From: Bacteroidota bacterium
GTDB taxonomy: Bacteria > Bacteroidota > Bacteroidia > NS11-12g > UBA955
Reading direction: 5' to 3'
DNA length: 64,000 nucleotides
NCBI GenBank assembly: GCA_030830065.1
Contig: JAURNR010000015.1
Span: forward strand, 10,135 to 74,134
Shown in pieces: positions 2,024 to 40,772 of this stretch. The notes under the pieces are model-generated. The model was given only the letters and a program-made list of their open reading frames with translations. It had not been told where the DNA came from and ran no database searches. Numbering within the stretch: position 1 is the stretch's first letter; every line of letters starts with the position of its first letter. A program made the position numbers and the translations under genes.

Positions 2024-2165
2024 TACTAATATTTTTTAATTTGTTGAATTATTTAATTAAACATTTTTTTCTGATTTACTGAGTATTACCAATTTTCAAA
2101 TTCTTAAAATATTCAATTCTCTACACGAAAAATTGTATTCCTTATTCAAACCTATATTCGCACAT

Positions 2166-4640
2166 ATGACACGGATAATCCAACTGATTGTGTTTTATTC
2201 AATACTTCTAACAGTAAATTTACTTAGTGCACAAAAGCAATTTATACGTATTGAAATTATTGATAAAGAATCGCAGATGCCAATAACGGGTTCCGAAGTG
2301 ATACTTAAAAATAACTTCGGCCCAATCTTGAAGCAAAACAAGATTGATAAAGGACAATATTCAATCGAAGCCCCTTTGGGACGCTATAACCTAAGTATTA
2401 TTTCTGAAGGTTATCAAACAATTCAACAAAATGGCATTCTCATAAATTCCGGAAAGGAAGTAATCCTTAGAATAGAAATGGAGCAGGATATTACTAAAAT
2501 CAACCAAATCACCATTCATAGTAATTCCTCATCAGATAATCCAAACAATGACGGAGCATTAGTTTCTGCAAGACTGTTTACCGTAGATGAAACGGATAGA
2601 TTTGCGGGTAGCCGCGGTGACCCAGCAAGAATGGCATCAAATTTTGCCGGTGTTCAAGGCGCAGATGATTCCAGAAATGATATTGTTGTAAGGGGAAACT
2701 CTCCCGCCGGGATATTGTGGAGAATAGAAGGGATTGATATTCCAAATCCAAACCATTTTGCTATTCCAGGTACTACTGGTGGTTCTGTCTCAATAATAAA
2801 CAACAAGATATTAGCTAATAGTGACTTTTTTACGGGTGCATTCCCAGCAGAATATGGCAACGGAATTGCAGGAGCTTTTGATCTAAAACTCAGGAAGGGA
2901 AATTCCAATAAAAATGAAGTTTCTTCACAGCTTGGAATACTTGGTTGGGACATCCTAACTGAGGGTCCCTTGAACAAAAACGGAGCTTCCTATCTATTGA
3001 CCTACCGATATTCTACTCTATCGATGTTTAATGCTCTTAATATTCCTATTGGCACCGATGCTATCCCCCAATATCAAGATGCGTCCTTTAATTTAAATTT
3101 CCCTCTAAAGAAAAATGCACAGCTTAAATTCTTTGGGCTAGGTGGTAAAAGTAATATTGATATAATGATATCGGATAAAACTGAATCAACCCGAAACTTA
3201 TATGGAGATAATGACCGAGATCAATTTTTTGGTTCTAAAATGTACGTTTGGGGTTGTAGTTATACAAAACCTATCAATAAAAATTCTTACATCAAGGGTA
3301 TAGTAAGTTTCAATTCCCAAGAAGTACAAGCTGATCATCAATTGGTACACCGCAAGGTGATTGACACGTTTGAAAAGGACGGTGAAATATATAATAGGTT
3401 TGAGATAGATAGTATCATACCGAATTTACATTACCGCTTTCTTAACCAAAGTATTGGGGTACATTTATTTATTAACACACGATTATCTCCAGTAAACACT
3501 TTAAAATACGGATTACAGTATCGTCATTATTTTTATAATTTTTTTGATAGCAACCTTAATATAAATCCAACATTACCAAACCTTGGTGGTTGGGATATTA
3601 GATGGAATGCAATTGGCAGTGGCGACATGATTATTCCCTATGCTCAATTAAAGACTCGTTGGAATAAGAGACTTACCACAGTAACCGGAGTTCAATCACA
3701 ATATTTTGGTATCAAGTATAACCCACAACTCCAACTAAGTGGTACACAAACTGAATCCCATTCAGATATAGTATGGTTCTTACCAAGATTTTCGGCCGAA
3801 TATCGGTTAGATACCAAAAACACATTGAATTTTGGAATGGGACTACATGCACAAAATCAATCTGAATATATTTATTTCTACAATATTCCCGGACAACCCC
3901 AACCTCATAATTTAGGTATGGGCCTTACTAGAAGTGCCCATTATATTCTAGGATGGAACTACAACTTCATGCCTGGCAGTAGAATTAAAATGGAAACTTA
4001 TTATCAAAACCTTTGGAATATTCCGATTGAGGTCCAATCATCCTCATTCAGCCTCGCAAATACTGGTTCTGGTTTTAGCAGATTTTTCCCTAACAAATTG
4101 ATTAATAACGGAATTGGACGTAATTATGGGTTAGAACTAACTCTTGAACGTTTTTTCAGTAAAGGATTTTATTATCTTTTTTCGGGAAGTTTATTCAAAG
4201 CCGAATACCAGGGCAGTGATGGAATTTGGAGAAATTCAGACTTTAACACAGATTATGCTGTTAATGCCCTTTTTGCCAAAGAGTTTAAAATCAGGAGTAA
4301 AAATGTCTTAAATATTGGCGGTAAAGCAACTTTTGCTGGGGCTAGACGCTTTTCACCTATCGATTCAGTTAAATCAGTGAATGCCAGAGAATATATTGAA
4401 CTTGATGCCGCAAAAAATACAGAGCGATTTGATCAACCATATATGCGTTTTGACATTAGAATTGCCTACCGAATTAACGCTAAAAAAAGCTCGCATGAAA
4501 TCGCTTTTGATTTGGTAAACTTCACAAATAATAAAAATATCTTAAATTATACTTTTATAAACGAACCTCCATACAAGCGTATCGCATACCAATTAGGATT
4601 TCTACCACTATTCTATTATCGGATTGATTTCTCATTATAA
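2166..4640 (+). CDS. TonB-dependent receptor with N-terminal carboxypeptidase-regulatory-like domain
   Basis: Signal peptide, plug-region motifs DPARMASNFAGV, RNDIVVRGNSP, IPNPNHF and FFTGAFPAEYG, and a beta-barrel end (FYYRIDF). ATG 2166 is preferred over the ORF-track start 2133. Confidence 0.88.
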   Translation: MTRIIQLIVFYSILLTVNLLSAQKQFIRIEIIDKESQMPITGSEVILKNNFGPILKQNKIDKGQYSIEAPLGRYNLSIISEGYQTIQQNGILINSGKEVILRIEMEQDITKINQITIHSNSSSDNPNNDGALVSARLFTVDETDRFAGSRGDPARMASNFAGVQGADDSRNDIVVRGNSPAGILWRIEGIDIPNPNHFAIPGTTGGSVSIINNKILANSDFFTGAFPAEYGNGIAGAFDLKLRKGNSNKNEVSSQLGILGWDILTEGPLNKNGASYLLTYRYSTLSMFNALNIPIGTDAIPQYQDASFNLNFPLKKNAQLKFFGLGGKSNIDIMISDKTESTRNLYGDNDRDQFFGSKMYVWGCSYTKPINKNSYIKGIVSFNSQEVQADHQLVHRKVIDTFEKDGEIYNRFEIDSIIPNLHYRFLNQSIGVHLFINTRLSPVNTLKYGLQYRHYFYNFFDSNLNINPTLPNLGGWDIRWNAIGSGDMIIPYAQLKTRWNKRLTTVTGVQSQYFGIKYNPQLQLSGTQTESHSDIVWFLPRFSAEYRLDTKNTLNFGMGLHAQNQSEYIYFYNIPGQPQPHNLGMGLTRSAHYILGWNYNFMPGSRIKMETYYQNLWNIPIEVQSSSFSLANTGSGFSRFFPNKLINNGIGRNYGLELTLERFFSKGFYYLFSGSLFKAEYQGSDGIWRNSDFNTDYAVNALFAKEFKIRSKNVLNIGGKATFAGARRFSPIDSVKSVNAREYIELDAAKNTERFDQPYMRFDIRIAYRINAKKSSHEIAFDLVNFTNNKNILNYTFINEPPYKRIAYQLGFLPLFYYRIDFSL

Positions 4641-4719
4641 ATAGGTAATTGTCCTAACCAATATACATGTGTACAACCACTTTTTGCTCCAAATAAGTGG
4701 AATATTAAATTCGTATGAT

Positions 4720-5688
4720 ATGAATAAACTGTGGTTGTTGTTACTATCCGGGATAACGATGTTTTCTTGTGTAAGTAAAAAGGAATATCAAGCACTCAAG
4801 AAAGAGCGTGATTCAATTTCTCACGTTTGTATGCTTGAGCGTCGTGCAGAAATAAAATATCGAGATTCAATACTAAGAGAAGTGAAAAAGGTTGAGATTG
4901 AAATGGATAAACAGAGACTAATTGCGAGCGCACTTAGAGACAGTTTACAAATTTGTCATAACAATCTTGAAGAAAATAAATTATATCTTGAAAATCTAGG
5001 AGAGAATTTAACTGAAAAACAAAAGCAAATAGCCCAGGAAATAGCTGCAAAAAATAAAGCGATTGCCGCAAAAGAGTTAGAGCTAAACGATGCCCTCGCG
5101 GAAGCAGAAAAAGAACGAATACGTCTTGTTAAACTTAGAGAGGAGCTCGAATTAATAAGTCAACGTGTTAAAGATTTAGAAGCTGAGTTACGCAGAAAAG
5201 ATAGCGCAGTTATTCTGTTAAAAGAGGCAATCATGAATGCGCTAGCAGGTTTTGAAGATTTAGATATTAAAGTTGAATATAAAAATGGAAAAGTATACGT
5301 AATCTTACCAGAAAAATTATTATTCAAAAGTGGAAGTACCTCTGTTGATCCTAAAGGAGTTGAGGCATTGCTGAAGATTTCAAAAGCACTGAAAGAAAAA
5401 AACGATGTACAAATTGGTGTTGAAGGACACACGGACAATATCCCGCTGAAGGAAAGTGATAGAATGAAGGACAACTGGGATTTAAGTGTTCTAAGGGCAA
5501 CCAGTATATCTAGAATTCTAATTGAAAAAGGTGGCATATCCGACGAACGAATTACCGCTATGGGAAGAGGTGCAACCATGCCAGTGGCCGACAACGGAAC
5601 TCCCGAGGGAAGAGCAAAAAACCGTCGTACAGAAATAATCTTAACGCCTCAGTTAGATAAAATTCTTGAGATTTTGAATTCTAATTAG
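4720..5688 (+). CDS. OmpA/MotB-like peptidoglycan-binding lipoprotein with long coiled coil
   Basis: Lipobox FSC, a heptad-rich middle region, and the C-terminal OmpA-like motifs LLFKSGS, VEGHTDN, NWDLSVLRA and GRAKNRRTEI. Confidence 0.88.
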   Translation: MNKLWLLLLSGITMFSCVSKKEYQALKKERDSISHVCMLERRAEIKYRDSILREVKKVEIEMDKQRLIASALRDSLQICHNNLEENKLYLENLGENLTEKQKQIAQEIAAKNKAIAAKELELNDALAEAEKERIRLVKLREELELISQRVKDLEAELRRKDSAVILLKEAIMNALAGFEDLDIKVEYKNGKVYVILPEKLLFKSGSTSVDPKGVEALLKISKALKEKNDVQIGVEGHTDNIPLKESDRMKDNWDLSVLRATSISRILIEKGGISDERITAMGRGATMPVADNGTPEGRAKNRRTEIILTPQLDKILEILNSN

Positions 5689-5689
5689 G

Positions 5690-6151: not shown

Positions 6152-6197
6152 TACTTTACCTACATAATTTTTTATTGAATCATATCTTTGTAGTAGA

Positions 6198-8069
6198 ATG
6201 AATATTGAGACATTATTAGTGGAAGAAATTTCACAAACCCTTCACCATTTATATGGAGAAATTATTGGCTTGAAGGTTTCTTTGGAAAAAACTAAACCCA
6301 CCTTTAACGGGGATTTCACTTTAGTTGTATTTCCTTTTGTCAGATATTCTAAATCATCGCCAGAGGAAACCGCAAAACAAATTGGTGAAGTTCTTTGTAA
6401 AAAGGAAGAAATCTTCTCATCATATAACGTTATTAAAGGGTTTCTAAATCTAAATATTTCAACCACTTTATGGCTCAATTATTTCAATCAATTCGAGGCT
6501 ACATCTACAGACACCTTGAAGGGTCAAAAAATAATGATTGAATATTCATCTCCCAACACAAACAAACCTTTACACCTTGGTCATATTCGCAATAACCTTT
6601 TGGGATATTCATTGTCGCAGATTATGAAGGCCAATGGTGCTGATGTAATTATGGCCAACCTAATAAATGACCGTGGAATCCATATATGTAAAAGCATGTT
6701 AGCATGGCAAAGGTTTGGAAATGGGGAAACACCAGAAAGTGCGGCTATTAAAGGCGACCATTTAGTTGGTAAATACTACGTGGTTTTTGAAAATAAACTT
6801 GTAGAAGCCACCTCTGAGGCCATTGAAAATGCCTACCATGGAAACTGGACTTCTGATGACAACACTATTAATGAGCGTTATCGGGATTTATTGACGCGAT
6901 TATCGGAGGCAGAAGAGGACAAGCAAATTTCAAAAATCAAGGGCTTGATTAAGGATCTTGTTCGAAACCAATCAGAATTAATGCAATCTTGCCAGGAGAT
7001 GCTAAGAAAGTGGGAAGCTGGAGATGAAGAAATACTTCAATTGTGGTCTACCATGAATTCTTGGGTTTATGATGGATTTGATTCTACATACAAAAATCTA
7101 GGGGTTTCATTCGATAAGTTTTACTATGAATCCAATACCTATACATTAGGAAAAGATATAGTTCAAGAAGGGTTGGCAAGCGATGTTTTCTTTATAAAGG
7201 AAGATAATTCTGTTTGGATTGATTTAAGTGATAAGGGACTAGATGAAAAATTAGTTCAGCGTGGTGATGGGACTTCAGTTTACATTACCCAAGACATGGG
7301 AACGGCGGAATTAAAATACAAAGATTTTCATATTGACCGAAGCATTTACGTAGTTGGAAATGAACAGGATTATCATTTTAAAGTATTATTCCTGATAATG
7401 AAAAAGCTAGGTAGACCTTATGCAGAAGGAATGTACCATGCAAGTTATGGGATGGTTGATTTACCTTCCGGAAAAATGAAAAGTCGCGAAGGCACTGTAG
7501 TGGATGCAGATGATTTATTACAGGAAATGTACAATACCTCAAAAGCTAAAACCGAGGAATTAGGAAAAACCCAAGGGATGGACGATTCTGAACTCGATAT
7601 TTTGTACAAACGACTTTCACTTGCGGCATTGAAATTCTTTATTCTCAAGGTAGACGCGAAGAAACGCATGTTGTTTAACCCAGAGGATAGCATTGATTTC
7701 CAAGGTGATACTGGCCCCTTTGCAATGTATACCTACGCTCGAATTAAAAGTATCCTAAGGCAACAGCAGGCTGAAAACTCTAGTTACAGCGATTTAGAGT
7801 TACATTCTACGGAAGTTGATGTAATCAAAACTCTTTCTGAATATTCTACGGTATTGAAGAACGCAGCAAATGAATACAATCCATCTGGTTTGTGTCAATA
7901 CATTTTAGATTTAGCCAAATCATTCAACCGTCTATACAACGAATTATCTATTTTAAAGGAGCCGGATTTACAAAAGAAAAATTTCCGCCTACAACTTGCT
8001 AAAAAAACTTCCGATACATTGTCCCACTCAATGGGATTATTAGGAATTGAAATGGTTGAGAGAATGTAG
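6198..8069 (+). CDS. argS: Arginine--tRNA ligase
   Basis: EYSSPNTNKPLHLGHIRN (HIGH-like), GKMKSREG (KMSKS-like), GDTGPFAMYTYARIKS and C-terminal LLGIEMVERM. Confidence 0.97.
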   Translation: MNIETLLVEEISQTLHHLYGEIIGLKVSLEKTKPTFNGDFTLVVFPFVRYSKSSPEETAKQIGEVLCKKEEIFSSYNVIKGFLNLNISTTLWLNYFNQFEATSTDTLKGQKIMIEYSSPNTNKPLHLGHIRNNLLGYSLSQIMKANGADVIMANLINDRGIHICKSMLAWQRFGNGETPESAAIKGDHLVGKYYVVFENKLVEATSEAIENAYHGNWTSDDNTINERYRDLLTRLSEAEEDKQISKIKGLIKDLVRNQSELMQSCQEMLRKWEAGDEEILQLWSTMNSWVYDGFDSTYKNLGVSFDKFYYESNTYTLGKDIVQEGLASDVFFIKEDNSVWIDLSDKGLDEKLVQRGDGTSVYITQDMGTAELKYKDFHIDRSIYVVGNEQDYHFKVLFLIMKKLGRPYAEGMYHASYGMVDLPSGKMKSREGTVVDADDLLQEMYNTSKAKTEELGKTQGMDDSELDILYKRLSLAALKFFILKVDAKKRMLFNPEDSIDFQGDTGPFAMYTYARIKSILRQQQAENSSYSDLELHSTEVDVIKTLSEYSTVLKNAANEYNPSGLCQYILDLAKSFNRLYNELSILKEPDLQKKNFRLQLAKKTSDTLSHSMGLLGIEMVERM

Positions 8070-8657
8070 TTATCCTCCTTTTAATCTGTCTGGATTTTCC
8101 TTTAAGAATTGTTCCCAGCCTGATTTTTTCTTTGCCGTGTTAGACCTACCTTGAGTGGTCCCAAAAGTACGGGGTTGGAATTGGTAAAGGTGACATAATG
8201 CAGCTGCTAATCCATCGGAAGCATCTAATGTCTCAGGCTTTGTTTCAAAATCAAACTGTGCTGTTAGCATAGATAATACTTGCTCTTTTGATGCATTTCC
8301 ATTACCACAAATTGACTGTTTTATTTTACGTGGAACATATTCATATACGGGAACTTTTTGAGAAATTGCCGCAGCAATCGCTACCCCTTGAGCTCTACCA
8401 AGCTTAAGCATACTTTGAACATTTTTCCCAAAAAATGGAGCTTCAATTGCTACTTCATGAACTTCAAACCCCTTAATTAGCCCAACTATTCGTTCATAAA
8501 TATGGTGTAGTTTCTCACCTGCGTCAGTTATTTTAGATAATCGAACCACTCCAAGAGTGAGCAAGCTAGGTTTCCCGTTTTGTATAGAAATAACCCCATA
8601 TCCAAGGAGGTTTGTTCCCGGGTCAATACCTAATATCACTCTATCTGTAGAAGACAT
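8070..8657 (-). CDS. ruvC: Crossover junction endodeoxyribonuclease RuvC
   Basis: ILGIDPGT, EAPFFGKNVQSMLKLGRAQG, KIKQSICGNGNASKEQV and DASDGLAAA. True start is likely ATG 8657 (ORF track extends to 8798). Confidence 0.96.
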   Translation of the reverse strand: MSSTDRVILGIDPGTNLLGYGVISIQNGKPSLLTLGVVRLSKITDAGEKLHHIYERIVGLIKGFEVHEVAIEAPFFGKNVQSMLKLGRAQGVAIAAAISQKVPVYEYVPRKIKQSICGNGNASKEQVLSMLTAQFDFETKPETLDASDGLAAALCHLYQFQPRTFGTTQGRSNTAKKKSGWEQFLKENPDRLKGG

Positions 8658-8781
8658 GTTGCGAAGATACACATTCTTAATGCATCTAAATATTGCAGTA
8701 TCAAAACAAATACAATGGATTTCGTATTGCCTATCGTTTAAAAAATAACGACCTTTGCAGCGATTTAATTCAATAAAAATT

Positions 8782-11046: not shown

Positions 11047-11066
11047 AACTAAGACTATACCAAGTT

Positions 11067-11430: not shown

Positions 11431-11496
11431 AGTGTTTAACTTTTGAAATGAAACACTGAAAACACTTAGAATAATCGGTTTGTAATCATATTTTTG
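11431..11496 (+). promoter_or_regulatory. Promoter and candidate operator sites of the beta-glucan cluster
   Basis: -7 box TATTTTTG at 11489-11496. LacI-like TAATCGGTTT at 11472-11481. AGTGTTT at 11431 with complementary AAACACT at 11451 and 11460. Confidence 0.45.
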
Positions 11497-11509
11497 GGAG
11501 TTTAACAAA

Positions 11510-14500
11510 ATGAATTCCGAATCAAATATTTATTTAGGTAATAAGAAAATAAATTCTGTTGATGCTGAGGTAAAAGGGCATGAGGTAGAAATTAACAATG
11601 AAGTTTTTTATAAAATTTCAAACTTAGATGGAATGAGGCCTTTCTTCATGAGTATTGTCAGTAGCTCGGATCATTGGTTCTTTATCTCCAGTACAGGAGG
11701 TATTAGCGCAGGAAGAAAAAATCCAAGCTTTGCACTATTCCCTTATTACACCGACGATAAGATTTCTGAGTCAAGTGAATACACGGGATCAAAAACCATA
11801 CTTTTAGTAAAGAAGGAAGATAAAACCTATTTATGGGAACCCTTTTCCATACGCAACCATGGTATATACAAAATCACCAGAAATTTATATAAAAATTACT
11901 GTGGCAATAAAGTCATCTTTGAAGAAATCAACCATGATTTGAATTTGACATTTGTATATGAATGGAATACAAGTGATGAATATGGGTTTATCAGAAAGTC
12001 TCGTCTCGAAAATTTAACACAGGATAATATAACGGTTAGAGTGTTGGATGGGATTCAAAATATATTGCCTTATGGAGTAGATGAGGGACTTCAAAACAGC
12101 ACTAGTAATTTGGTAGATGCTTATAAAAAATGTGAATTAGAAACAGATTCTGGTTTAGGTATATACTCACTCAGCGCAATTATTGTTGACAAAGCAGAAC
12201 CAAGTGAAGCATTAAAGGCAAATTTGGTCTGGTCTATTGGGCTTAATAACTCGAAAAAACTACTCTCATCTCTTCAGTTAGATAATTTCCGATTTGGGAA
12301 AAACATAATTCAGGAAGTCGACATTAAGGCAGAAAGAGGTGCTTATTTCGTAGAAAAAGAAGTTCCATTAAAACCCTTGGGCACAGAAAATTGGATGATA
12401 GTGGCAAACGTCAATCAAAATATGAACAACGTGGTAAAGATAAAAAGTGAACTTACCGATCCTGATACTCTATTGACCAAGATTTATAATTCTGTCTCGG
12501 CTGGCACAGAAGAACTGATAAAGATTGTAGCATCTTCGGACGGATTGCAAGCAACTTCAGACAGCTTGCGTGTTGCTCGACATTTTGCCAATACGCTCTT
12601 TAATGTGATGCGCGGGGGAGTTTTCGATGATAATTATATAATTGAAAAGGGAGATTTCAATAAATATTTGAAAAAGGCAAACCTTAAAGTATATGCAAAA
12701 AGATCAGAAGTAATTGGTGGCCTGCCTGAAACATTTACATCAGACTATTTGAAAGAAATTATTCGAGAGGAATCAAATAAAGATTTTAAACGGTTAGCTC
12801 TTGAATATTTACCATTAAAGTTTAGCAGAAGACATGGTGATCCTAGCAGACCATGGAATAAGTTCTCAATTAACACAAAAGGTGAAGAAGACGGTTTAAA
12901 AATTTTGGATTACCAAGGGAATTGGAGAGATATTTTTCAAAACTGGGAGGCATTAGTTCACGCATATCCAGAATTCATTGAAGGTATGATTAGTAAGTTC
13001 TTAAATGCTACTACATTTGATGGATATAATCCTTACCGCGTCACAAAAGATGGATTTGACTGGGAAACTATTGAACCTGATAATCCGTGGTCATACATAG
13101 GGTACTGGGGAGATCATCAAATCATTTACTTATTAAAATTTCTAGAATTCATTGAAAATGTATATCCAAAAAGATTGGAAAACTATTTTACTGAAGAATT
13201 ATTTGTTTATGCGAATGTTCCCTACCGAATTAAGGATTATCCAAGTATTTTAAAGGATCCTAAAAACACAATTGACTTTGACCATGAATCTGAAAACAAA
13301 ATACAGAAAAAACGATTAGAAGTTGGTTCAGATGGAGCCTTACTTTGGGGAAACGCCCAAGATATCTATCACGTAAATTTTATTGAAAAAATATTGGCAA
13401 CCCTACTGGCTAAGGTTTCCAACTTCATTCCTGAAGGCGGTATTTGGATGAATACCCAAAGACCCGAATGGAACGATGCAAATAATGCATTGGTAGGGAA
13501 TGGAGTGTCGATGGTTACATTGTATTATTTGAGAAGATTTTTAGATTTCTTCCGACAGATATTAGAAAATACAGCAATCAACGAAGTACAGGTATCAGTT
13601 GAATTATTGGATCAATTTGATATAATATACGAGACTTTCATCACTCATGAAACTTTATTAACTGGCATCATCAATGATAGTGATAGAAAAAAGGTGGTTG
13701 ATCAGTTAGGTTCTGCAGCCAGCGAATACAGAAGAAAGATTTACACCGAAGGATTCACCCAAGAAAAAGGAGAATTAAAAACAAACCGGTTAAAAGCATT
13801 TGTTTCAATAACTCAACGCTTTCTAGAACATTCAATTCGAGCAAATAAACGTCCCGACAATTTATACCATGCCTACAATCTAATGACGGTAAAGAACACT
13901 GAAGAAATTTCTATTTCTTATTTACCAGAAATGTTAGAGGGACAAGTTTCTGTTTTAAGTTCAGGATACTTAGAAACCGAAGCAGTTATAGAACTTTTAG
14001 ACGCGCTTAAAGCAAGCAAATTATTTAGAGCAGATCAATACAGCTACATTCTTTATCCAAATAAATCCTTACCACGTTTCGTAAATAAAAATACTATTTC
14101 GGAGGATCAGGTAAATTCATCCGAACTGCTTAAAAAGTTAGTTCATGATGGAAATAGGCATATCGTTCGTAAAGACCTAAAGGGAGAATACCATTTCAAC
14201 GGTAACTTAAAAAATGCAGATTTCTTGAAAAAAGCATTGAAAGAACTTCCCTTAGTATATCAAGAACTTGTTGCAAAGGATTCTCAAATTATTCTAGATA
14301 CTTATGAGGAAAATTTTGATCATAAATCCTTCACTGGAAGGTCTGGGACTTTCTTTGGTTATGAGGGATTAGGTTCTATCTATTGGCATATGGTGTCAAA
14401 ACTAAGATTAGCTGCCTTGGAAGTGACTGAAAAATCAGTGACTGCGAAAGTAAATGCTAAATCCATAGGGAAGTTGTTTGATCATTATTTTGAAATAAAG

Positions 14501-17290: not shown

Positions 17291-17301
17291 ACTGACATTC
17301 A

Positions 17302-18729: not shown

Positions 18730-18740
18730 AAGGTCTTTTT

Positions 18741-21798: not shown

Positions 21799-21903
21799 GA
21801 TATACGAAATAAGCCAATAAGTTAAAATTTAACACTATACTCAGTTGAATTTTGTGTAAGACTTTTGACAATTGCCTTGTCTAACTTTAACTATCTTTGT
21901 AAC

Positions 21904-27031: not shown

Positions 27032-27032
27032 A

Positions 27033-27887: not shown

Positions 27888-27972
27888 ACCACGAATTTAA
27901 CATGAACATTTGACAAACGAAATACTACAAATTTTAAAACTCAATTCTGATTATATTGTTATTCAGAATATA

Positions 27973-28560: not shown

Positions 28561-28633
28561 AATTGTTCGTGTGTTTTGTGATTCTTATGGGAATTCAGCT
28601 ACTTAGGGTTATTTTCGCGCAGAGTTTCAGGAC

Positions 28634-29580: not shown

Positions 29581-30219
29581 TTATCTCAGATCTACTAGTG
29601 CAACTCCAGGATGTGCCGAACTGTCCCAAGTAAATAAATTACTAGAGACTCTTGCATTTCTCTTGAAATCAGTAATTTCTATTACTATTTCCATCCCATT
29701 TTTCACATGCTGAGTAACTTTATGGATATAGTTATTTGACGGATTAATTTCTAAATGGATGTAAGAATATTTTGCACGTTTCTTTTTGGGCACCAACTTT
29801 ATCAATTCGTATGACTTTCCTCCGTATGTTTTTTTACCTTCGTACAAAGACTTAAACCCTTTTTCATAAAAGCTAAACATTTCTTCAGGAGACATTTGAT
29901 TTGTACGCTTTGAGTAGGACTCAAGGGTAACTTCATCTGTGGTTGAACTGTAAGTCCAAATAGATTTACCATCACACATTATTTCTTGGTCACCCAGTTC
30001 TAATTTAAATGATTTTCCTTTTAGCCAAAGCTTTCCTTTATTTATTATAGGTTTACGTTTTGCGGAACTTGTAGTAAATGAAAAACTTGCTTCGATAGAT
30101 TTCATCGATTTATAAACCTTAGAGGTTTTCTTTAAAATAGATTTTGATCTTGCATCGGATTGAGCATAGGTTCCAAATGCAACTGAAAACATCAAAATTA
30201 ATAGCGCCAATTTTTTCAT
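29581..30219 (-). CDS. lolA: Outer-membrane lipoprotein carrier LolA family
   Basis: Signal peptide, KGKLWLKGKSFKLEL, CDGKSIWTY...EVT and a DLR C-terminus. Lies in the conserved position downstream of ftsK. Confidence 0.8.
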   Translation of the reverse strand: MKKLALLILMFSVAFGTYAQSDARSKSILKKTSKVYKSMKSIEASFSFTTSSAKRKPIINKGKLWLKGKSFKLELGDQEIMCDGKSIWTYSSTTDEVTLESYSKRTNQMSPEEMFSFYEKGFKSLYEGKKTYGGKSYELIKLVPKKKRAKYSYIHLEINPSNNYIHKVTQHVKNGMEIVIEITDFKRNARVSSNLFTWDSSAHPGVALVDLR

Positions 30220-30300
30220 ATCCGTAAATTCAAAACTACCAAAATTTTAGTACAAATAGATTTTATATGCTGTAAAGACAGTAACCTTCGATAAAATCAT

Positions 30301-32784
30301 CTATTCCCCTCCATTCAGATTTTGCAAGTGTTGTTCCAAAGCAAACTCATCTGGAATATTAACATCTCTAGGTTTTGATCCCATATTTGGTCCTACAATA
30401 CCTGCATCTTCAAGCTGATCCATCAATCTACCGGCACGATTATACCCAATCTTCATTTTCCTTTGAATCATACTTGTTGAACCCACTTGATTTTGAACCA
30501 CTATTCTCGCAGCATCTTCAAACAAAGCATCCCTATCATCTGCATCATATTCACCGCCACCTGAAACTGACTCGTCTTTTACTTCGGGCAATAAATAAGC
30601 TGTTGGATATGCTCGTTGCTCACCAATAAAGTCAACAATCTTTTCAACTTCAGGCGTATCTACAAAAGGACATTGGAGACGTATCAAGTCATTGCCTCCA
30701 CTGTATAACATATCACCTTTTCCAATTAACTGATCTGCTCCATTGTGATCCAAAATTGTACGTGAATCAATTTTAGAAGTTACCCTAAATGCAATTCTTG
30801 CTGGGAAATTAGCCTTAATCATTCCGGTAATTACATTTACTGAAGGCCTCTGAGTGGCAAGAATTAGATGAATACCTATAGCACGAGCAAGTTGTGCTAT
30901 TCGTGCAATAGGGGTTTCGATTTCCTTTCCAGCAGTCATCATAAGATCTGCAACTTCATCTATAACAACGATGATGTAGGGTAAAAAGCGATGACCATTC
31001 TCGGGGTTCAACTTTCTATCGAGGAATTTATTATTGTACTCAACTATATTCCGCACTAATGCATCCTGCAACAGTTTGTATCGTTGATCCATTTCCTCAC
31101 ATAATGAATTGAGTGTATGAATTACTTTTTGATTTTCGGTAATAATTGCTTCACCGTCTCCAGGAAGCTTTGCTAAGAAATGTCGTTCAATTTTATTGTA
31201 GAGCGTAAGTTCTACTTTCTTAGGATCCACCAATACAAATTTTATATACGCTGGATGTTTTTTGTATAACAGAGAAACTAATATAGCATTTAACCCTACT
31301 GATTTACCTTGGCCCGTAGCACCAGCCATTAGGAGGTGAGGCATTTTGGCTAAATCAGCGAGAAAAATTTCATTAGAAATAGTTTTTCCTAAAACAACGG
31401 GTAATTGATAATCACATTCCTGGAACTTCTTACTTGCAAGAACCGTTTTCATCGGAACCATTTCCGGACTCTTGTTTGGAACTTCAATTCCAATAGTTCC
31501 ACGTCCTGGAATAGGCGCAATTATACGAATACCAAGAGCAGCCAAACTTAGAGCAATATCATCTTCTAAGTTTTTAATTTTTGAAATCTTCACGCCAGGT
31601 GCTGGAACAATTTCATATAATGTTACAGTAGGACCTACAGAAGCACTAATACTAGAAATACCAATTTTATAATTGATTAAAGTATCTTCAATAAGCTTTT
31701 TACTTCTTTCAATTTCGGCAACATCAATATCACGTTTCATGTTACCATAATCTTTCATTAAATCTAAGGTAGGAAAGTGATAACCACTCAAATTTGCCCG
31801 TGGGTCGTATTCAGTTCCTATTTTACCATACTCTTCCTCATTTTGTTTTTCAGCTAAATTCTCACTTACTAATTCTTCTTCTAAGTGAGTCTTATCTTCA
31901 ATTGTAAATCCGCTATCAGTTTCAATTGTTGGTTCAGTAGTTTCTTCCGGAGACGCTAATGTTGAATTATCTGGTTCAGGATCATGCGACACCTCCTCTT
32001 CAGACCTAAATTCTTCATTTTCTGAATTAAATACATTGTCCTGTGGCTCATCCTCGATAATCTGTGGTTCTCGGCTGGATTGAACTATTTCAGGTTCCTC
32101 ATCTTCAAATTCCTCAATCTCAGAATCAGAATTAAGTGAAAGAATTTTCGAAAATGGATTCGCATTATGAAATATAATGTAGTAGATAAATGCAAAACCC
32201 AGTAAAAACAAAATTGTGCCAACCATTCCAATCCCATTTTGCATTTGTTGAATACCAAAATACCCAAAGGATCCCCCTGCTAATGGAAGCCACAATTGAA
32301 AAATAAACCCTAAAAACAAAGAAAACCAAACCATAAATAAAATGGTATGGATTAGGATTCTATGAATTGAAAAAGGCTTATAGTTGAGTAGCCAATTTAG
32401 ACCCAAAAAAATAAAATAGGGTAATATTAAATAGGCTGCAAAACCAAATCCTTGGTGTACAAAAAAGTAAGATAATCGGGCACCCATGTAACCCATTGCA
32501 TTGGCAGCTTGACCGTGGTGCTGTTTAAATAACTTCCAATCACCATCAGCTAAGAAGCTTTGATCAGTTTTCCAAGAAAAGAAGAAAGAGGTAAAACTCA
32601 CGAAAAGAACAATACTTGCCGTAAGTAATAAAAACCCTAATACGCGTCTTGTTGCATCGTTTTTTAATGATGCTGCCTTAAAAACTTCCTTTGCCGAAAC
32701 CTTTTGGGTTTTATCTTTGGGGGCGTCTTTTAGGAAATCTGTAATTGTGTTTGATTTATTCTTTGTCTTAGCAGTTTTCCCCAT
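30301..32784 (-). CDS. ftsK: DNA translocase FtsK
   Basis: N-terminal TM domain, acidic linker, MPHLLMAGATGQGKS (Walker A), IIVVIDE (Walker B), ATQRPS and gamma domain IGYNRAGRLMDQLE. Confidence 0.97.
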   Translation of the reverse strand: MGKTAKTKNKSNTITDFLKDAPKDKTQKVSAKEVFKAASLKNDATRRVLGFLLLTASIVLFVSFTSFFFSWKTDQSFLADGDWKLFKQHHGQAANAMGYMGARLSYFFVHQGFGFAAYLILPYFIFLGLNWLLNYKPFSIHRILIHTILFMVWFSLFLGFIFQLWLPLAGGSFGYFGIQQMQNGIGMVGTILFLLGFAFIYYIIFHNANPFSKILSLNSDSEIEEFEDEEPEIVQSSREPQIIEDEPQDNVFNSENEEFRSEEEVSHDPEPDNSTLASPEETTEPTIETDSGFTIEDKTHLEEELVSENLAEKQNEEEYGKIGTEYDPRANLSGYHFPTLDLMKDYGNMKRDIDVAEIERSKKLIEDTLINYKIGISSISASVGPTVTLYEIVPAPGVKISKIKNLEDDIALSLAALGIRIIAPIPGRGTIGIEVPNKSPEMVPMKTVLASKKFQECDYQLPVVLGKTISNEIFLADLAKMPHLLMAGATGQGKSVGLNAILVSLLYKKHPAYIKFVLVDPKKVELTLYNKIERHFLAKLPGDGEAIITENQKVIHTLNSLCEEMDQRYKLLQDALVRNIVEYNNKFLDRKLNPENGHRFLPYIIVVIDEVADLMMTAGKEIETPIARIAQLARAIGIHLILATQRPSVNVITGMIKANFPARIAFRVTSKIDSRTILDHNGADQLIGKGDMLYSGGNDLIRLQCPFVDTPEVEKIVDFIGEQRAYPTAYLLPEVKDESVSGGGEYDADDRDALFEDAARIVVQNQVGSTSMIQRKMKIGYNRAGRLMDQLEDAGIVGPNMGSKPRDVNIPDEFALEQHLQNLNGGE

Positions 32785-32867
32785 ACTACGAAACTAAAAC
32801 GAATATTATCTAGTAAATCGTTCAGTTATTCACAGAAAAATTAGTGTTTACTTTAAGTGGCAATAAC

Positions 32868-34920: not shown

Positions 34921-35672
34921 TAATCCTTTTTTATTAGTGGATATAATATGGGGTTTGAGGGAACTGCATCTGAAAATATTCTTGGCAGACCCAATTGCAT
35001 GAAATAGATTCCATCTTGAAGTGAATTCGGAACGTAAATTAGTTCGGTAATCGTAGCATTATATCTTGGTTCAGACGGGTAATTCCACCAAACTCTGTGT
35101 GATAACAATTCTCCCCCATCTTCTTCTGGGTCTATGGAAGGAAAATCAGTTAAAATATGATGATAGCCTTTACTCTTGATAAACTCAATAGCTTCTGGAG
35201 TAAAATAGGGAGGATTAGTACCGCTCCAAATATTTGATTTTTTTGCTATCTCATTTGGGGTACTACGAATAATAATTGCCGAAGTTGGCTCCCAATTTAT
35301 TGTTTTTAAACAATCCTTGTCAATAAAAGTATAAATCCCGTCCTTTTTTAAAGGAACCGTTATTAATTGTGCTGAAAGGTTCGTTTCCAGGAGCATTTCA
35401 ATAACATTAATTCTCTCTTTTGATAGATGACCTACACATTCTGTATGCGTTCCATTGCCATGAGCACAATAGGTAACCATCTCGCAATTCGCACTGCCTC
35501 CTTCCTTTACTGCTCCAACAAAATCTCCAACTTTAATTGGCTCAAAAAGTGCTTTTGGAATATAAAATGCATTTGGGTTTTCTGCATTTGGTCCAAACCC
35601 CAATGCTAATGAAACTCCTTTTTCTAAGGACGCAGAATAATTAACCCCAGCAATATTAAACTCAACATGCAT
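34920..35672 (-). CDS. Cyclase family metal-dependent hydrolase (kynurenine formamidase-like)
   Basis: HGNGTHTECVGH, DFPSIDPEEDGG, ITELIYVP and DAVPSNP. Confidence 0.85.
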   Translation of the reverse strand: MHVEFNIAGVNYSASLEKGVSLALGFGPNAENPNAFYIPKALFEPIKVGDFVGAVKEGGSANCEMVTYCAHGNGTHTECVGHLSKERINVIEMLLETNLSAQLITVPLKKDGIYTFIDKDCLKTINWEPTSAIIIRSTPNEIAKKSNIWSGTNPPYFTPEAIEFIKSKGYHHILTDFPSIDPEEDGGELLSHRVWWNYPSEPRYNATITELIYVPNSLQDGIYFMQLGLPRIFSDAVPSNPILYPLIKKD

Positions 35673-35708
35673 GTTTCCAAAGATCTGTAATTTAAACTAA
35701 TTAAAAAA

Positions 35709-36281
35709 TTAAGCTTTTAGCGCTGATTCTAACTTTTCTAGGTAGATTTCATGTGGGATTTCGTAAGCACCAAATTGGGCTATGTGAGGATTTAAATATT
35801 GGGTATCCAGCAATAAGAAGTCATTTTCTCGGAGAAACTCAACCAAATATACCAAACAAACTTTACTAGCATCAGTAACTGTGTGAAACATACTTTCGCC
35901 AAAAAATGCTTTACGGATACTTACCCCGTAAAGCCCTCCAACAAGTTCACCCTCTTTATATGCTTCAAATGAATGTGCAAATCCTTCTTCATGCAATTCT
36001 AAATAAGCTTCAATAATTTCATCGGAAATCCAGGTATCCTCGCTTCGTAATGATGCACAAGTTCGAATTACCTGTTCAAAATTTCTATTAATTTGAATAT
36101 CGAATACATTCTGTTTATATAGGCGTCGTAAATTTTTAGATACCTTAAAACGCTCGTCGAGAGGAATAATCCCTCTCATTTTTGGTGTATGCCAATAGAT
36201 TTGATTATCCTCTTCGGGGTCTGCCATTGGAAAAGAACCTGAGATATATGCCTGGAGTAATAAATTTGGCGACAGAAACAC
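35709..36281 (-). CDS. aat: Leucyl/phenylalanyl-tRNA--protein transferase
   Basis: LLQAYISGSFPMA, TWI...IEAYLELH..GFAHSFE, LVGGLYGV, FFGESMF...DASKV and LLDTQ. GTG 36281 is the likely start. Confidence 0.95.
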   Translation of the reverse strand: MFLSPNLLLQAYISGSFPMADPEEDNQIYWHTPKMRGIIPLDERFKVSKNLRRLYKQNVFDIQINRNFEQVIRTCASLRSEDTWISDEIIEAYLELHEEGFAHSFEAYKEGELVGGLYGVSIRKAFFGESMFHTVTDASKVCLVYLVEFLRENDFLLLDTQYLNPHIAQFGAYEIPHEIYLEKLESALKA

Positions 36282-36330
36282 CTTGCAAAGGTAGGACAAC
36301 TCCTAAAAAACTCGTTTTTTTGCTGTGCAA

Positions 36331-37080: not shown

Positions 37081-37600
37081 CCTTATTGGTGTAAGCTCTG
37101 TCTCTTATGTCAAACTCAAACGGTTTTAAGAGTTTATGTATTTCTTGTTCGTTTTCAAATTTTGATGAAACTTCATATTCTATCTGTTGCACTTTTTCAA
37201 TCTTCCCAGATCGGTTTAAAACCGATTTAGCCCCATCTCCGTATGCGCTAATGAGACCTGGAATTCCGAGAAGCGTTCCTCCAAAATAACGAACTACAAC
37301 TACCAAGACATTTGTTAATTCTTGTGAAAGAATTGCTCTTAATATTGGCCTACCTGCACTACCAGATGGCTCACCGTCGTCGTTCGCCCTTTGTGCTTCT
37401 TGGCCTTGTCCTAATATGAAGGCGTAACAATAGTGTGATGCATCGGGATATTGTTGTTTTAAGGATTGAATATTGTGCTTAATCTCCTCATCCGAATGAA
37501 CCTTAAAACTGTAGGATATAAACTTACTACCTCGTTCTCGTAATTGTGTTTCGGAATTATTTTCAATTTCGTTGTATGTGTCTGAGAACAATGAACTCAT
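36989..37600 (-). CDS. yigZ: YigZ / IMPACT family protein
   Basis: ERGSKFI, ASHYCYA, NDDGEPSGSAGRPIL and VVVVRYFGGTLLG..GLISAY. Confidence 0.92.
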   Translation of the reverse strand: MSSLFSDTYNEIENNSETQLRERGSKFISYSFKVHSDEEIKHNIQSLKQQYPDASHYCYAFILGQGQEAQRANDDGEPSGSAGRPILRAILSQELTNVLVVVVRYFGGTLLGIPGLISAYGDGAKSVLNRSGKIEKVQQIEYEVSSKFENEQEIHKLLKPFEFDIRDRAYTNKVTYKVAIRRSQAEAFEKGLKEAYLLESQFS

Positions 37601-38511
37601 TGAACCAAATATATAGAGAACAATGCCAAAATCAAACCCAATATTTTTGCAATGGACCACTTTTCACGGTAAAAAATCCCTACCAAAGAAGCACCTACAA
37701 CAACTAGAATGTTATTAATTGTAAAAAACGTAGATGAATGATTAGGGAAGGAATCTAAAGCATTGTACAATGCAACAATTGAGAATAGATTTATTGTACC
37801 TAAAATAATGCCCCAAAACCAATTAACTTTTAACTTAAACACAGTAAAATCCCGTTTGAGCAATATATAAAATATACCAGTAATTAAAGCTCCAGTAAAT
37901 GTGTGAGTGGTGAGTTGCATGTTACTCAGTTCCCCTTGATTAATCTTATTTAAAAAATTAATGGACAAATCTACCAGACCACTTCCGAGAAAAACCCATA
38001 CAAGAATAAGATCCCATTTTAAGCTATCCATCTTATTGGGCTTTATCATTAAATAAACTGAAAGTAAAGCCATAAAAATACCTACATACCCCCAAATATT
38101 AACATTTTCATCCCAAATAATAATTGCCGATAAAATGGGAATTACCATTGACATTTTTGATGCCACTGAACTGGCAGCAGCGCCCACTTTTTGTGTAGAA
38201 TATGCCATAAACAAAAAGGTAAACAAGAATAAAACACCTGTGCTGACGGCAAAAAACTCAACCAAAGAGAAGCTATTAATTTGAAGCAATCGTGGAATCG
38301 AAACTTCCTTAAGTTCTGTGGAAATTCCTGTTGAAATCCAAATATTCCCTAGGATAAAACAGACAAAATAATTGATAATTATAACGGGCAAGGGAGCAAT
38401 ATTTCGCCTACCTAGCTCTTTGAACACAAGGAAAATAAATACCGATAATATTACGGCGTAAAAAACGGCTAAATTCTGCGATGTAATAATGTTTAAGGGC
38501 GTGAAAGTCAT
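37597..38511 (-). CDS. DMT/EamA-like membrane transporter
   Basis: About 10 hydrophobic segments in two repeats; IIINYFVC, SVASKMSMVIP and FYREKWS...GLILA. Confidence 0.75.
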   Translation of the reverse strand: MTFTPLNIITSQNLAVFYAVILSVFIFLVFKELGRRNIAPLPVIIINYFVCFILGNIWISTGISTELKEVSIPRLLQINSFSLVEFFAVSTGVLFLFTFLFMAYSTQKVGAAASSVASKMSMVIPILSAIIIWDENVNIWGYVGIFMALLSVYLMIKPNKMDSLKWDLILVWVFLGSGLVDLSINFLNKINQGELSNMQLTTHTFTGALITGIFYILLKRDFTVFKLKVNWFWGIILGTINLFSIVALYNALDSFPNHSSTFFTINNILVVVGASLVGIFYREKWSIAKILGLILALFSIYLVQ

Positions 38512-39542
38512 TTAGCGGTATATTTATCCCATTGGCGATGTATGATTCTTTTAAATTCTCGCTCTTTTGGGGTTAATTCTAGGTTCGGAAATTTTGGAGC
38601 TTTAATTCCTTCTTCAAGATGAATATCTACATTAATAAATTGGTGAAGTTCATCAAATGCCTGAGCTTTCAAGAATGCCTCTATTGTATGTTTACCACCT
38701 TCCACTATTAATGAATTTATTTTTTGTTTATATAAGTAATTCAGGATCTGTTTTACACTAATGGATGGCTTATTCCCTATTTTTATATACTTCAATTTTC
38801 CGCAATCCTGATTTTTTAAAGAATTCACAACCCATGTTTTACCTTCAGCATCTTCATATGAACCTTTTATAGCAGGATCCACAATAATTTTTATCGGTTG
38901 GGGACCGTTCCAAAAACGATCTGTAAGCTTGGGTTTGTCATTTATCCAGGTATTTACACCCACTAAAATTGCAGAATGAGATTTCCTAAATTTGTGATTA
39001 TATTTTTGAATTTCCTCATCTGTAATTTTTATGGATTCTCCCTCCATTTTACCTATAAATCCATCTCTTGTTTCTGCCCACTTGATAGTGACATATGGTT
39101 GCTTGTACTTATGGAAATTTAGAAAAAACCTATTTAACATGGTTGCCTCAAATTCTCCAACACCAACTTCGACCTTTATACCTGCCTCTTGAAGTCTTTT
39201 AACTCCACTACCTGCTACTAAAGGATTAGGATCAAGAATCGAAATAACGACTTTCGGAATTCCCGCTTGAATTATTAAGTCTGTACAAGGAGGTGTTTTT
39301 CCTTGATGATTGCATGGCTCTAGATTAACATATAAGGTTGCATTTTTAAGACGAGGATCTCCAATAATTGGTAATATTGCATTTCTCTCTGCATGATTTC
39401 CACCAAATTTTTCATGATAGCCTTCAGAAATTATTTCGTCATTATGAACTAATACACAACCCACTAAAGGATTTGGGTTTACCAAACCTTCACCATTTTG
39501 TGCTATTTCTATGCAACGATTGATGTAATCGATATGCTTCAT
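38508..39542 (-). CDS. ribD: Bifunctional riboflavin biosynthesis deaminase/reductase
   Basis: PNPLVGCV, HAE, NLEPCNHQGKTPPC, KWAETRDG, AILVG and LIVEGG. Confidence 0.95.
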   Translation of the reverse strand: MKHIDYINRCIEIAQNGEGLVNPNPLVGCVLVHNDEIISEGYHEKFGGNHAERNAILPIIGDPRLKNATLYVNLEPCNHQGKTPPCTDLIIQAGIPKVVISILDPNPLVAGSGVKRLQEAGIKVEVGVGEFEATMLNRFFLNFHKYKQPYVTIKWAETRDGFIGKMEGESIKITDEEIQKYNHKFRKSHSAILVGVNTWINDKPKLTDRFWNGPQPIKIIVDPAIKGSYEDAEGKTWVVNSLKNQDCGKLKYIKIGNKPSISVKQILNYLYKQKINSLIVEGGKHTIEAFLKAQAFDELHQFINVDIHLEEGIKAPKFPNLELTPKEREFKRIIHRQWDKYTAK

Positions 39543-39578
39543 TTGTATCAGCGAAAATAAACTTTAATTTTGAAGCGC

Positions 39579-40772
39579 ATGAAACAAAACGGCGCGCGAA
39601 AAGGTGGACGCAGATTGAGACTTTCAAAAGTTTTTAAAGAATTCTTCCAAAATCAACAATCTTCTGGGATTTTACTAGTTGCATTTACAGCAGTTTCTTT
39701 ATTTATCTCAAATAGTATTTGGGGCGAAGATTATTTAAAACTTTGGGACTTTGAATTTGGTACAGAGGTATTTCATTTACATCTTAAACACTCGGTAACT
39801 GATTGGATTAATGATGCCTTAATGGCAATTTTCTTCCTTCTTGTTGGAATTGAAATTAAAAGGGAACTGATTGAGGGCGAGTTGAGTGACAGAAAGAAAG
39901 CGATGCTTCCTGTTATTGGAGCAATTGGCGGAATGTTAATTCCTGCACTATTTTATTTTTTCATAAATATGAATAGTCCTAAAACTCTTTCTGGAATCGG
40001 AATTCCTACTGCAACAGATATTGCATTTGCAATTGCAATTTTAGGTATGTTAGGAGATAAGGTTCCGCCCGCATTAAAAGTATTTTTAACAGCGCTAGCC
40101 ATCATTGATGATTTAGGAGCAATATTAGTTATAGCCATATTTTACGGTCAACCCATTTCTGTTCCTTGGTTAGGTGTTGCCGCTGGATTCATAGTGCTTC
40201 TTGAAATCGCCGATAGAAAGAATTGGGATTACATTTGGTTATATGCAGTTCTAGGTATTGGATTATGGTTTGCTATGTTGCATTCGGGTATTCATGCTAC
40301 TATTTCTGGAGTAATTCTAGCATTTATGTTGCCAAGGCAAACGAATATCGAAAAGAAAATTGCAAATCAGATAGAGCATAGCCTAAGTTGGTGGGTTTCA
40401 TTTATAATATTACCGTTATTTGCTGCTGCTAATACAGCTATACAACTAGATTTAAATCTTTTAGATCAATTAGTTACCCCACTATCATTAGGAGTGTTCT
40501 TTGGCCTTGTTTTAGGCAAACCATTAGGAATTTTTACCTTTTCTTGGCTAGCACACAAATTGAAATTCGCTGAAATATCTGCTAATATCCCTCTCAATAA
40601 ATTACTCTATGCGGGTATTTTAGGAGGAATTGGGTTTACTATGTCAATATTTGTTGCTAATCTTGCCTTTAACGATGTTACTCTTATCAATATCGGTAAG
40701 GTAAGTATTATTATTGCTAGTGTTACTGCTGCAACTGTTGGATATTTAGGATTTAAATTCTCGAAGAATTAA
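39579..40772 (+). CDS. nhaA: Na+/H+ antiporter NhaA
   Basis: WINDALMAIFF...EIKRE, IPTATDIAFA, FLTALAIIDDLGA, SGIHATISG, GKPLGI and GIGFTMSIF. Confidence 0.96.
   Translation: MKQNGARKGGRRLRLSKVFKEFFQNQQSSGILLVAFTAVSLFISNSIWGEDYLKLWDFEFGTEVFHLHLKHSVTDWINDALMAIFFLLVGIEIKRELIEGELSDRKKAMLPVIGAIGGMLIPALFYFFINMNSPKTLSGIGIPTATDIAFAIAILGMLGDKVPPALKVFLTALAIIDDLGAILVIAIFYGQPISVPWLGVAAGFIVLLEIADRKNWDYIWLYAVLGIGLWFAMLHSGIHATISGVILAFMLPRQTNIEKKIANQIEHSLSWWVSFIILPLFAAANTAIQLDLNLLDQLVTPLSLGVFFGLVLGKPLGIFTFSWLAHKLKFAEISANIPLNKLLYAGILGGIGFTMSIFVANLAFNDVTLINIGKVSIIIASVTAATVGYLGFKFSKN

Follow-up and report, generated by a model that had tools for sequence, protein, structure and literature searches.

Promoter boxes of the Bacteroidota -7 type adjoin start codons throughout an uncultured Bacteroidia genome and probably give rise to leaderless mRNAs

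Boxes and start codons in the window

The DNA analysed here, referred to as the window, is a 64,000-nucleotide (nt) stretch of contig JAURNR010000015.1 from a Bacteroidota bacterium (assembly GCA_030830065.1), and the element in question is an octamer, TAnnTT(T/C)G, that lies immediately in front of many of its start codons. Throughout, a match to this pattern is called a box, and the nucleotides between the end of the box and the start codon are called the spacer. The original prediction had listed ten such sites, and all of them are present, each with an octamer of this form 4–7 nt before the ATG (GTG for aat) to which it had been assigned (Table 1). The genes behind them include argS, ruvC, ftsK, aat, yigZ and nhaA as well as that of an 824-residue outer-membrane receptor-like protein, for which a scan against NCBIfam gave no match at E<=1e-25. 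The four longer spacers listed by the same source, of 9, 11, 13 and 16 nt, are likewise correct, as is a near-match that begins with G instead of T.

Table 1 Boxes in the window, with coordinates spanning box, spacer and start codon
Element	Coordinates	Strand	Spacer (nt)	Start codon	Downstream gene and remarks
-7 box TATATTCG	2153..2168	+	5	ATG 2166	824-aa outer-membrane receptor-like protein; upstream neighbour divergent
-7 box TAAATTCG	4706..4722	+	6	ATG 4720	OmpA-family protein; NCBIfam match only to C-terminal OmpA-like domain
-7 box TATCTTTG	6183..6200	+	7	ATG 6198	argS; NF002446, residue 34 at profile position 34
-7 box TATCTTCG	8655..8669	-	4	ATG 8657	ruvC; TIGR00228, residue 8 at profile position 1
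-7 box TATCTTTG	21892..21906	+	4	ATG 21904	823-aa glycosylhydrolase-like protein
-7 box TAAATTCG	27885..27899	-	4	ATG 27887	284-aa protein
-7 box TAGTTTCG	32782..32796	-	4	ATG 32784	ftsK
-7 box TACCTTTG	36279..36293	-	4	GTG 36281	aat; TIGR00667, residue 9 at profile position 6
Box TATATTTG	37598..37613	-	5	ATG 37600	yigZ; TIGR00257, residue 13 at profile position 9
-7 box TAATTTTG	39565..39581	+	6	ATG 39579	nhaA; NF007111, residue 14 at profile position 6
-7 box TATTTTCG	39540..39559	-	9	ATG 39542	ribD-like
-7 box TAGTTTTG	30217..30238	-	11	ATG 30219	would yield a short leader
-7 box TATTTTTG	11489..11512	+	13	ATG 11510	would yield a short leader
-7 box TATTTTCG	28610..28636	+	16	ATG 28634	would yield a short leader
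Near-match box GATCTTTG	35670..35685	-	5	ATG 35672	GAnnTTTG variant

The box of yigZ stands apart from the others. Its ATG shares bases with the stop codon of the preceding gene (37597-38511) in the sequence ATGA, a classic coupled arrangement, and the perfect box before the yigZ ATG lies inside that gene. Since genes in this context carry boxes in only 4 of 337 cases genome-wide, this one may have arisen by chance, or it may be a promoter internal to the preceding gene.

Two further places in the window touch on the same element. The divergent ribD-like gene and nhaA have their boxes back to back, 5 nt apart, within an intergenic gap of 36 nt, and the upstream part of each promoter must therefore lie within the first codons of the other gene. 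The gene that starts at ATG 8782 is without a consensus box; a GAnnTTTG-type octamer, GACCTTTG, is found 24 nt upstream (window 8748-8784) as a candidate leadered promoter. Contigs from RNA libraries start at 8779 and 8793 in two runs, near this ATG, which is no proof of 5' ends.

Position, context and signature of the boxes across the genome

The box is no more frequent in the window than in shuffled sequence (125 matches against 120.4 +/- 11.1, with 32 of 100 shuffles reaching 125), so any signal must sit in its position. The genome assembly, of 1.55 Mb in 64 contigs at 35% GC, allows position to be read without gene calls, by recording for each box on either strand the distance to an ATG that opens a frame of at least 100 codons. 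For the 2754 boxes found genome-wide on both strands, such ATGs occur 81, 60, 33 and 28 times at spacers of 4, 5, 6 and 7 nt, over a background of about 9 per spacer at 30–60 nt. The predicted genome-wide peak over background is thus borne out, with 202 ATGs at spacers of 4–7 nt where 36.6 are expected. The flat overall count in the window is what would be seen if the pattern arose by chance or from the composition of an AT-rich genome; we give this practically no credence, as the positional peak stands five- to eight-fold above other spacers and internal ATGs, recurs in a relative with a GC content of 49% (G011), and is weak in G121, a typical large and AT-rich genome (33% GC; 5 against 3.6).

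Gene calls lead to the same picture. A total of 1195 genes of at least 80 codons were called, and the 1154 that lie away from contig edges were used. A box is found 3–8 nt before a candidate start in 243 of these genes (21%), an arrangement that we call the layout, with 9, 97, 52, 34, 35 and 16 genes at spacers of 3, 4, 5, 6, 7 and 8 nt. Internal in-frame candidate starts have a box in only 68 of 15753 cases (0.43%). For the consensus form TAnnTTTG alone, 169 ATGs lie at spacers of 4–7 nt where 29 are expected, and 230 lie at 12–39 nt where 201 are expected, an excess over background of about 140 boxes at the short distance and about 29 at the longer one. The observation that gave rise to this study is therefore confirmed as real and genome-wide.

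The identity of the start codon is part of the pattern. Besides ATG, GTG is enriched only at a spacer of 4 nt (18 against 3.1), and TTG is not enriched at spacers of 4–7 nt (25 against 27.5), nor are five control codons. This fits transcripts that start at a purine which is itself the first base of AUG or GUG.

The argument depends on these codons being the true starts of translation. To compare them with protein families, we scanned 106 box-linked proteins against NCBIfam at the same threshold, 10 from the window and 96 from those twenty 20-kb stretches in which such genes are most numerous, and counted the positions of the N-termini by hand. A match was obtained for 53 proteins, four of them only in a C-terminal or internal domain, leaving 49 informative cases. 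The protein begins between -7 and +15 residues from the start of the profile in 45 of these, and within +/-3 residues in 28, including SucB, Kbl, TrmD, PanD, EF-P, DHFR, Ffh, MetG, RecG and two ABC-F proteins. N-terminal extensions of 24–34 residues are seen in two others, and two are truncated and represent false positives (peptide deformylase by 37 and TrpG/PabA by 48 profile positions). By profile alignment, the box-adjacent start codon is thus the conserved N-terminus in 45 of the 49 checkable proteins. Were the start codons mis-assigned, with transcription starting at the box-adjacent ATG and translation at an AUG further downstream, the mRNAs would have ordinary leaders; and offsets of +11 to +34 residues in MiaB, PurL, AhcY, the T9SS plug protein and a GldE-like protein do permit downstream starts in individual cases. 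As a general explanation we regard this as very improbable, given the 28 proteins that match full-length models within three residues of position 1, and given that the box-linked codon is the first candidate start of its open frame in 159 of the 243 genes.

Boxes are found where promoters would be needed. They precede 116 of 378 genes (31%) whose upstream neighbour is divergent and, among co-directional genes, 44 of 136 with an intergenic gap of 11–40 nt, 53 of 164 with a gap of 41–100 nt and 22 of 111 with a gap above 100 nt, but only 4 of 337 (1%) with a gap of 10 nt or less. Counting a divergent neighbour or a gap above 10 nt as a possible head of a transcription unit, 235 of 789 such genes (30%) have the layout. 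In the divergent class and the classes with gaps above 40 nt taken together, 191 genes have it, and for a further 183 a consensus box stands at another place within 150 nt, in most cases at 10–40 nt. The layout therefore covers about one fifth of the genes, about 30% of the possible unit heads and most of the recognisable consensus promoters.

This restriction to the heads of operons bears on whether the motif acts in DNA or in RNA, and GeneMarkS-2, as described in PMC6028130, uses the same criterion to separate promoters from ribosome-binding sites. A motif that served as a ribosome-binding or stability signal within ordinary leaders, with no promoter involved, would be in keeping with the AT-rich upstream signals reported for Bacteroidota, which do without Shine-Dalgarno sequences (PMC6847099, PMC6028130), and ribosome-binding sites, too, stand at a short and constant distance from the start codon. 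The motif is, however, nearly missing before genes inside operons, and an RNA signal would not account for the detailed match to the sigma-A box set out below, down to variable positions that are nearly free of G, nor for GTG being enriched at a single spacer and TTG at none. We consider an RNA-level signal highly improbable.

Where two genes diverge, the promoters show no special back-to-back pairing. Divergent pairs with the layout on both sides number 17, where independence predicts 17.8, and we rejected the idea; the gaps in these pairs have a median of 70 nt and measure at least 40 nt.

In composition, the boxes bear the published signature of the Bacteroidota -7 element, as the original prediction had proposed. 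The consensus TAnnTTTG occurs 117 times at spacers of 4 and 5 nt together, against 14.5 expected, and its T, A, T, T, T and G are nearly invariant. At the two "n" positions, where the search pattern allowed any base, G makes up only 4% and 2% of the 243 aligned boxes, and A is depleted at -13. The consensus reported for Flavobacterium johnsoniae is TAHHTTTG (PMC6847099). Among the same aligned boxes, no -33 element (TTTG about 19–21 nt upstream) is detectable, and no column from -52 to -14 exceeds 0.13 bits. Since the -33 element is described as barely evident in F. johnsoniae (PMC6847099), and as not evident there in the Bacteroides thetaiotaomicron paper as well (PMC7366714), its lack does not decide membership of the sigma-A class. 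The boxes are followed by an A-rich position, 2 nt after the final G (47–63% A), which tracks the box at every spacer rather than position -3 of the ATG, which marks it as part of the promoter and not as a Kozak-like signal.

The variant TTCG had been thought to be used about as often as TTTG. This holds for the ten listed sites, where there are five of each, and fails genome-wide, where 33 TTCG boxes compare with 169 TTTG boxes at spacers of 4–7 nt; the even split in the window is a sampling effect. Nevertheless, among the 18 possible single substitutions, only TTCG is strongly enriched at spacers of 4 and 5 nt (24 against 4.2), with GAnnTTTG (17 against 6.4), TTAG and TCTG enriched about two-fold. 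Boxes with a single mismatch add only about 46 at these spacers, and 20 of those are TTCG. The share of TTCG at spacers of 4–7 nt is 33 of 202 here (about 16–17%), 7 of 41 in G006, a genome of the same genus, and 10 of 54 in G011, which belongs to another genus of the family. TTCG is a real and stable minority form in the family.

It had further been suggested that substitutions in region 2 of the housekeeping sigma factor, RpoD, might explain TTCG. We compared the 287-residue product of L001:1255-2118 (contig C28 of the source assembly, G000) with 79 relatives, and found 12 positions that are common to all 10 sequences of the clade and separate them from at least 85% of the 70 other Bacteroidia. 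Region 1.2 accounts for three of these (G26S, L30M and T32D), regions 2 and 3 for two each (E120D, at the end of the former, and K137R, in the latter, among them) and region 4 for three, while two fall outside matched domains. None could be linked to box position -6. Because the ten sequences are close kin, such differences are expected from descent alone and constitute no evidence for a link to TTCG. We did not adopt RpoD substitutions as an explanation.

Distribution of the layout among related genomes

RpoD also indicates where the genome belongs. Sequences 86–98% identical come only from metagenome-assembled genomes titled "Bacteroidetes bacterium" or "Bacteroidia bacterium", some with plainly wrong labels, and the next matches, at about 69%, are scattered over Hymenobacter, Raineya, Alistipes and others. 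Judged by these identities, the source is a deep, uncultured lineage of Bacteroidia.

To follow the layout beyond this genome, we surveyed species genomes by counting TANNTTTG-N4-5-ATG against the reversed pattern, a control that provides a rough background only; where the DNA was obtained, we relied on histograms filtered by open reading frames. The enrichment is graded by relatedness. It is highest in the own genus (19 genomes), with a median ratio of 2.22, a ratio of at least 2 in 15 genomes and a median excess of 55 per Mb, followed by the other genera of the family (81 genomes; 2.03; 43 genomes; 34 per Mb). In the sister family, which alone represents the rest of the order among the genomes sampled, the median ratio is 1.55, with 6 of 43 genomes at 2 or above and an excess of 22 per Mb, and in the other orders of the class it is 1.31 (8 of 99 genomes; median excess 9 per Mb). 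Within the family, the excess per Mb declines with genome size (Spearman rho -0.36); as kin are not independent, this relation is only a hint.

The filtered histograms agree with the survey. In 400 kb of G006, 34 boxes lie at spacers of 4–7 nt where 7.4 are expected, and in G011, with its higher GC content, the numbers are 44 and 4.2; both peak at 4 nt. When 71 other Bacteroidia are pooled (1.2 Mb around rpoD), the same spacers hold 28 boxes against 16.2, and a broad hump appears in addition at 12–39 nt (188 against 113). The layout is about five times rarer there. One genome from another family of the class, G198, seemed strongly enriched by its pattern count (194 against 51); its filtered 200 kb gave 5 against 2.7, and it was rejected.

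The layout is also kept gene by gene. Orthologues of box-linked genes have it in 20 of 35 cases in G006, at a median protein identity of 57%, and in 22 of 38 cases in G011, at 49%, while for the orthologues of other genes the counts are 16 of 117 and 18 of 156. The spacer itself drifts within 4–8 nt and is identical in only 8 of the 20 pairs with G006 and 2 of the 22 pairs with G011. The selected feature seems to be a box that adjoins the start codon, not an exact spacing. Taken over all genomes, the layout characterises the uncultured family as a whole and is less pronounced in its sister family.

Outside the class, seven GC-rich genomes of one family (f39: G304, G320, G348, G352, G372, G428 and G488) have pattern counts 3–6 times those of the reversed control. 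In one of them, G348, the filtered count is 6 against 1.3 in 148 kb, an enrichment that is suggestive only. The layout may have arisen in other classes of Bacteroidota too.

From box to transcription start

The position of the boxes becomes meaningful when set beside mapped promoters. In F. johnsoniae, the box lies at -12 to -5, leaving 4–5 nt between the box and the transcription start site (PMC6847099), and a likewise placed box, at -12 to -5, is given for Flavobacterium psychrophilum (PMC9723704). The modal spacer in our genome, 4 nt followed by 5 nt, equals this published distance. What the sequences show directly is where the boxes stand, how far this departs from expectation, in which gene contexts and before which start codons they occur, and how they are conserved. 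From box position and published distance together, we infer that the boxes fire, that transcription starts at or next to the start codon, and that the resulting mRNAs are translated without a leader.

The best-supported explanation, with which all the indirect tests made here agree, is that these are sigma-A promoters whose transcripts start on the start codon or no more than about 3 nt from it. The octamers would be -7 elements of housekeeping promoters of the sigma-ABfr type, with the consensus TAHHTTTG and with TAHHTTCG as a tolerated minority form. RNA polymerase would start 4–5 nt after the G of the box: at a spacer of 4 nt on the A of ATG or the G of GTG, at 5 nt on the A or one base before it, and at 6–7 nt in such a way that the start codon follows 1–3 nt further downstream. 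The mRNAs would then have no leader, or one of at most about 3 nt, and translation would proceed through recognition of a 5'-terminal AUG or GUG and not of leader features. On this evidence, we consider it likely that sigma-A promoters fused to start codons give leaderless or near-leaderless mRNAs for about one fifth of the genes and about one third of the transcription units, with start sites placed by calculation from the boxes.

Several points weigh against this reading. Spacers of 6–8 nt, found in 85 of the 243 genes, imply leaders of 1–4 nt and not strictly a 5'-terminal AUG. Among the 462 genes that resemble heads of units and lack the layout, 279 have no consensus box within 150 nt, and the leaderless share of all transcription units is therefore uncertain. 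The source is a metagenome-assembled genome that is 70.5% complete, its gene calls come from a simple, purpose-made open reading frame finder, and leaderless translation in the lineage is a prediction. The metatranscriptome data, finally, are short assembled contigs which cannot show 5' ends, and contigs 6167-6438 (run X1) and 5985-6209 (run X2) cover DNA upstream of the argS ATG. Such coverage could stem from read-through out of the gene that ends at 6151, from an additional upstream start, or from DNA in the library.

These argS contigs are also what would be seen if the boxes were real start-codon promoters that contribute a minor share of the mRNA, with upstream promoters or read-through dominating and translation being mainly leader-dependent. 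Read-through is conceivable for the 97 of the 243 box-linked genes that follow a co-directional gene at 11–100 nt (97 of 300 genes in that class). It is impossible for the 116 box-linked genes with a divergent neighbour; the excess of boxes at leadered distances of 12–39 nt is small next to that at 4–7 nt; and the retention of the layout, gene by gene, at about 50–57% protein identity suggests that the arrangement is important. We regard a minor share as unlikely, though less so than the other alternatives.

The RNA libraries provide some further observations on the window. Parts of window 1900-9000 occur in 12 metatranscriptome runs with freshwater, aquatic or seawater labels, all as small shares, and four runs were compared with window 1-20000. 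The highest summed contig depth by far falls in window 668-2001 (29–138, against less than 20 elsewhere). Within it, window 1200-1810 shows many joints that skip 119–381 nt, and many loose ends, inside a 247-codon frame on the reverse strand (1166-1909), which gives the impression of a strongly expressed gene, either repetitive or strain-variable. At the other end of the window, the reverse strand of 42316-63999 is taken up by one uninterrupted open frame, of at least 7208 codons, that runs off the window end, a giant protein gene.

Leaderless transcripts are not dominant in model Bacteroidota, as the original prediction had stated, and published leader lengths agree. In B. thetaiotaomicron, 3.7% of 5' untranslated regions (UTRs) are reported as shorter than 10 nt, and the modal length is 23 nt (PMC7366714); in F. 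johnsoniae, 87% of leaders exceed 10 nt and the mean length is 33 nt (PMC6847099); in F. psychrophilum, 5.5% of mRNAs are given as leaderless, with a median leader of 24 nt (PMC9723704); and for Segatella copri, 35–36 leaderless transcripts are listed among more than 2000 transcription start sites (bioRxiv 10.1101/2024.04.05.588293). The promoters described here share with the sigma-ABfr or sigma-A promoters of Bacteroides fragilis and of these four species the same consensus and the location at operon heads, and with those of F. johnsoniae the weak or absent -33 element and variable positions without G. The difference lies in the distance. In the mapped species, as their reports describe it, the box usually stands 20–35 nt before the start codon, median leaders measure 24–32 nt, and 2–13% of mRNAs either lack a leader or carry one no longer than 10 nt, whereas the modal distance here is 4 nt. 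In addition, unlike those species, this genome accepts TTCG in about one sixth of its boxes.

Computational surveys have touched on leaderless genes in the phylum before. An early one, which sought only Pribnow-type boxes, reports them in 1 of 37 genomes of Bacteroidetes/Chlorobi (PMC3160421). GeneMarkS-2 places 90% of Bacteroidetes/Chlorobi in its group B, "non-SD RBS" (ribosome-binding sites of a type other than Shine-Dalgarno; PMC6028130), and its Supplemental Table S4 (supplement file 6) assigns 7 of 436 Bacteroidetes genomes to the leaderless group C, where on average 59.9% of the genes that come first in operons are predicted to be leaderless; the entries, as tabulated, name no taxa below the phylum. 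Those seven resemble our case in being computational predictions of predominantly leaderless first genes within the phylum. A full-text search of the literature returned no paper that describes or maps a Bacteroidota lineage rich in leaderless mRNAs, although one may exist outside the library searched.

In its general form, the layout is like that of group C at large (Actinobacteria, Deinococcus-Thermus and some Mollicutes), where a promoter element stands at a fixed short distance before the first genes of operons only; prevalent leaderless transcription is known from experiment in Mycobacterium tuberculosis and Deinococcus deserti. The share of head-of-unit genes found here, about 30%, falls in the 25–50% quoted for that group. 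Unlike group C, the element is the Bacteroidota -7 box and not the Pribnow TANNNT, in a phylum that does without Shine-Dalgarno sequences, and this genome has a GC content of 35%, while group C genomes with genetic code 11 are almost all high-GC according to the MetaGeneMark-2 preprint. The comparison is best summarised by saying that prevalent leaderless transcription is a known organisation, probably encountered here in a phylum where experiments have so far shown it to be rare and where a supplementary table is a prior hint.

A wider reading, which we put forward tentatively as possible rather than probable, is that a whole uncultured order, represented by two families and more than 140 sampled species genomes, has moved its housekeeping promoters onto its start codons, most of all in the smallest genomes, with leaderless initiation as its main mode. 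If true, leaderless initiation would be the main mode in members of a phylum that is believed to depend on Kozak-like signals encoded in its leaders; the ribosomes of Bacteroidota, indifferent as they are to Shine-Dalgarno sequences, would be intrinsically good at initiating on a 5'-terminal AUG, and genome streamlining could select for the loss of 5' UTRs. The species mapped by transcriptomics, B. thetaiotaomicron, F. johnsoniae, F. psychrophilum and S. copri, are all mostly leadered, and models of initiation have been built on leader features; a lineage with at least one third of its units starting at the AUG would lend itself naturally to testing how start codons are found without Shine-Dalgarno sequences. 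For annotation, the promoter box would be the best available signal of gene starts here, and gene finders tuned to ribosome-binding sites may misplace them. The graded distribution, from the own genus through the family and the sister family to the other orders, together with the weak inverse relation to genome size within the family, offers a handle on how the trait evolved.

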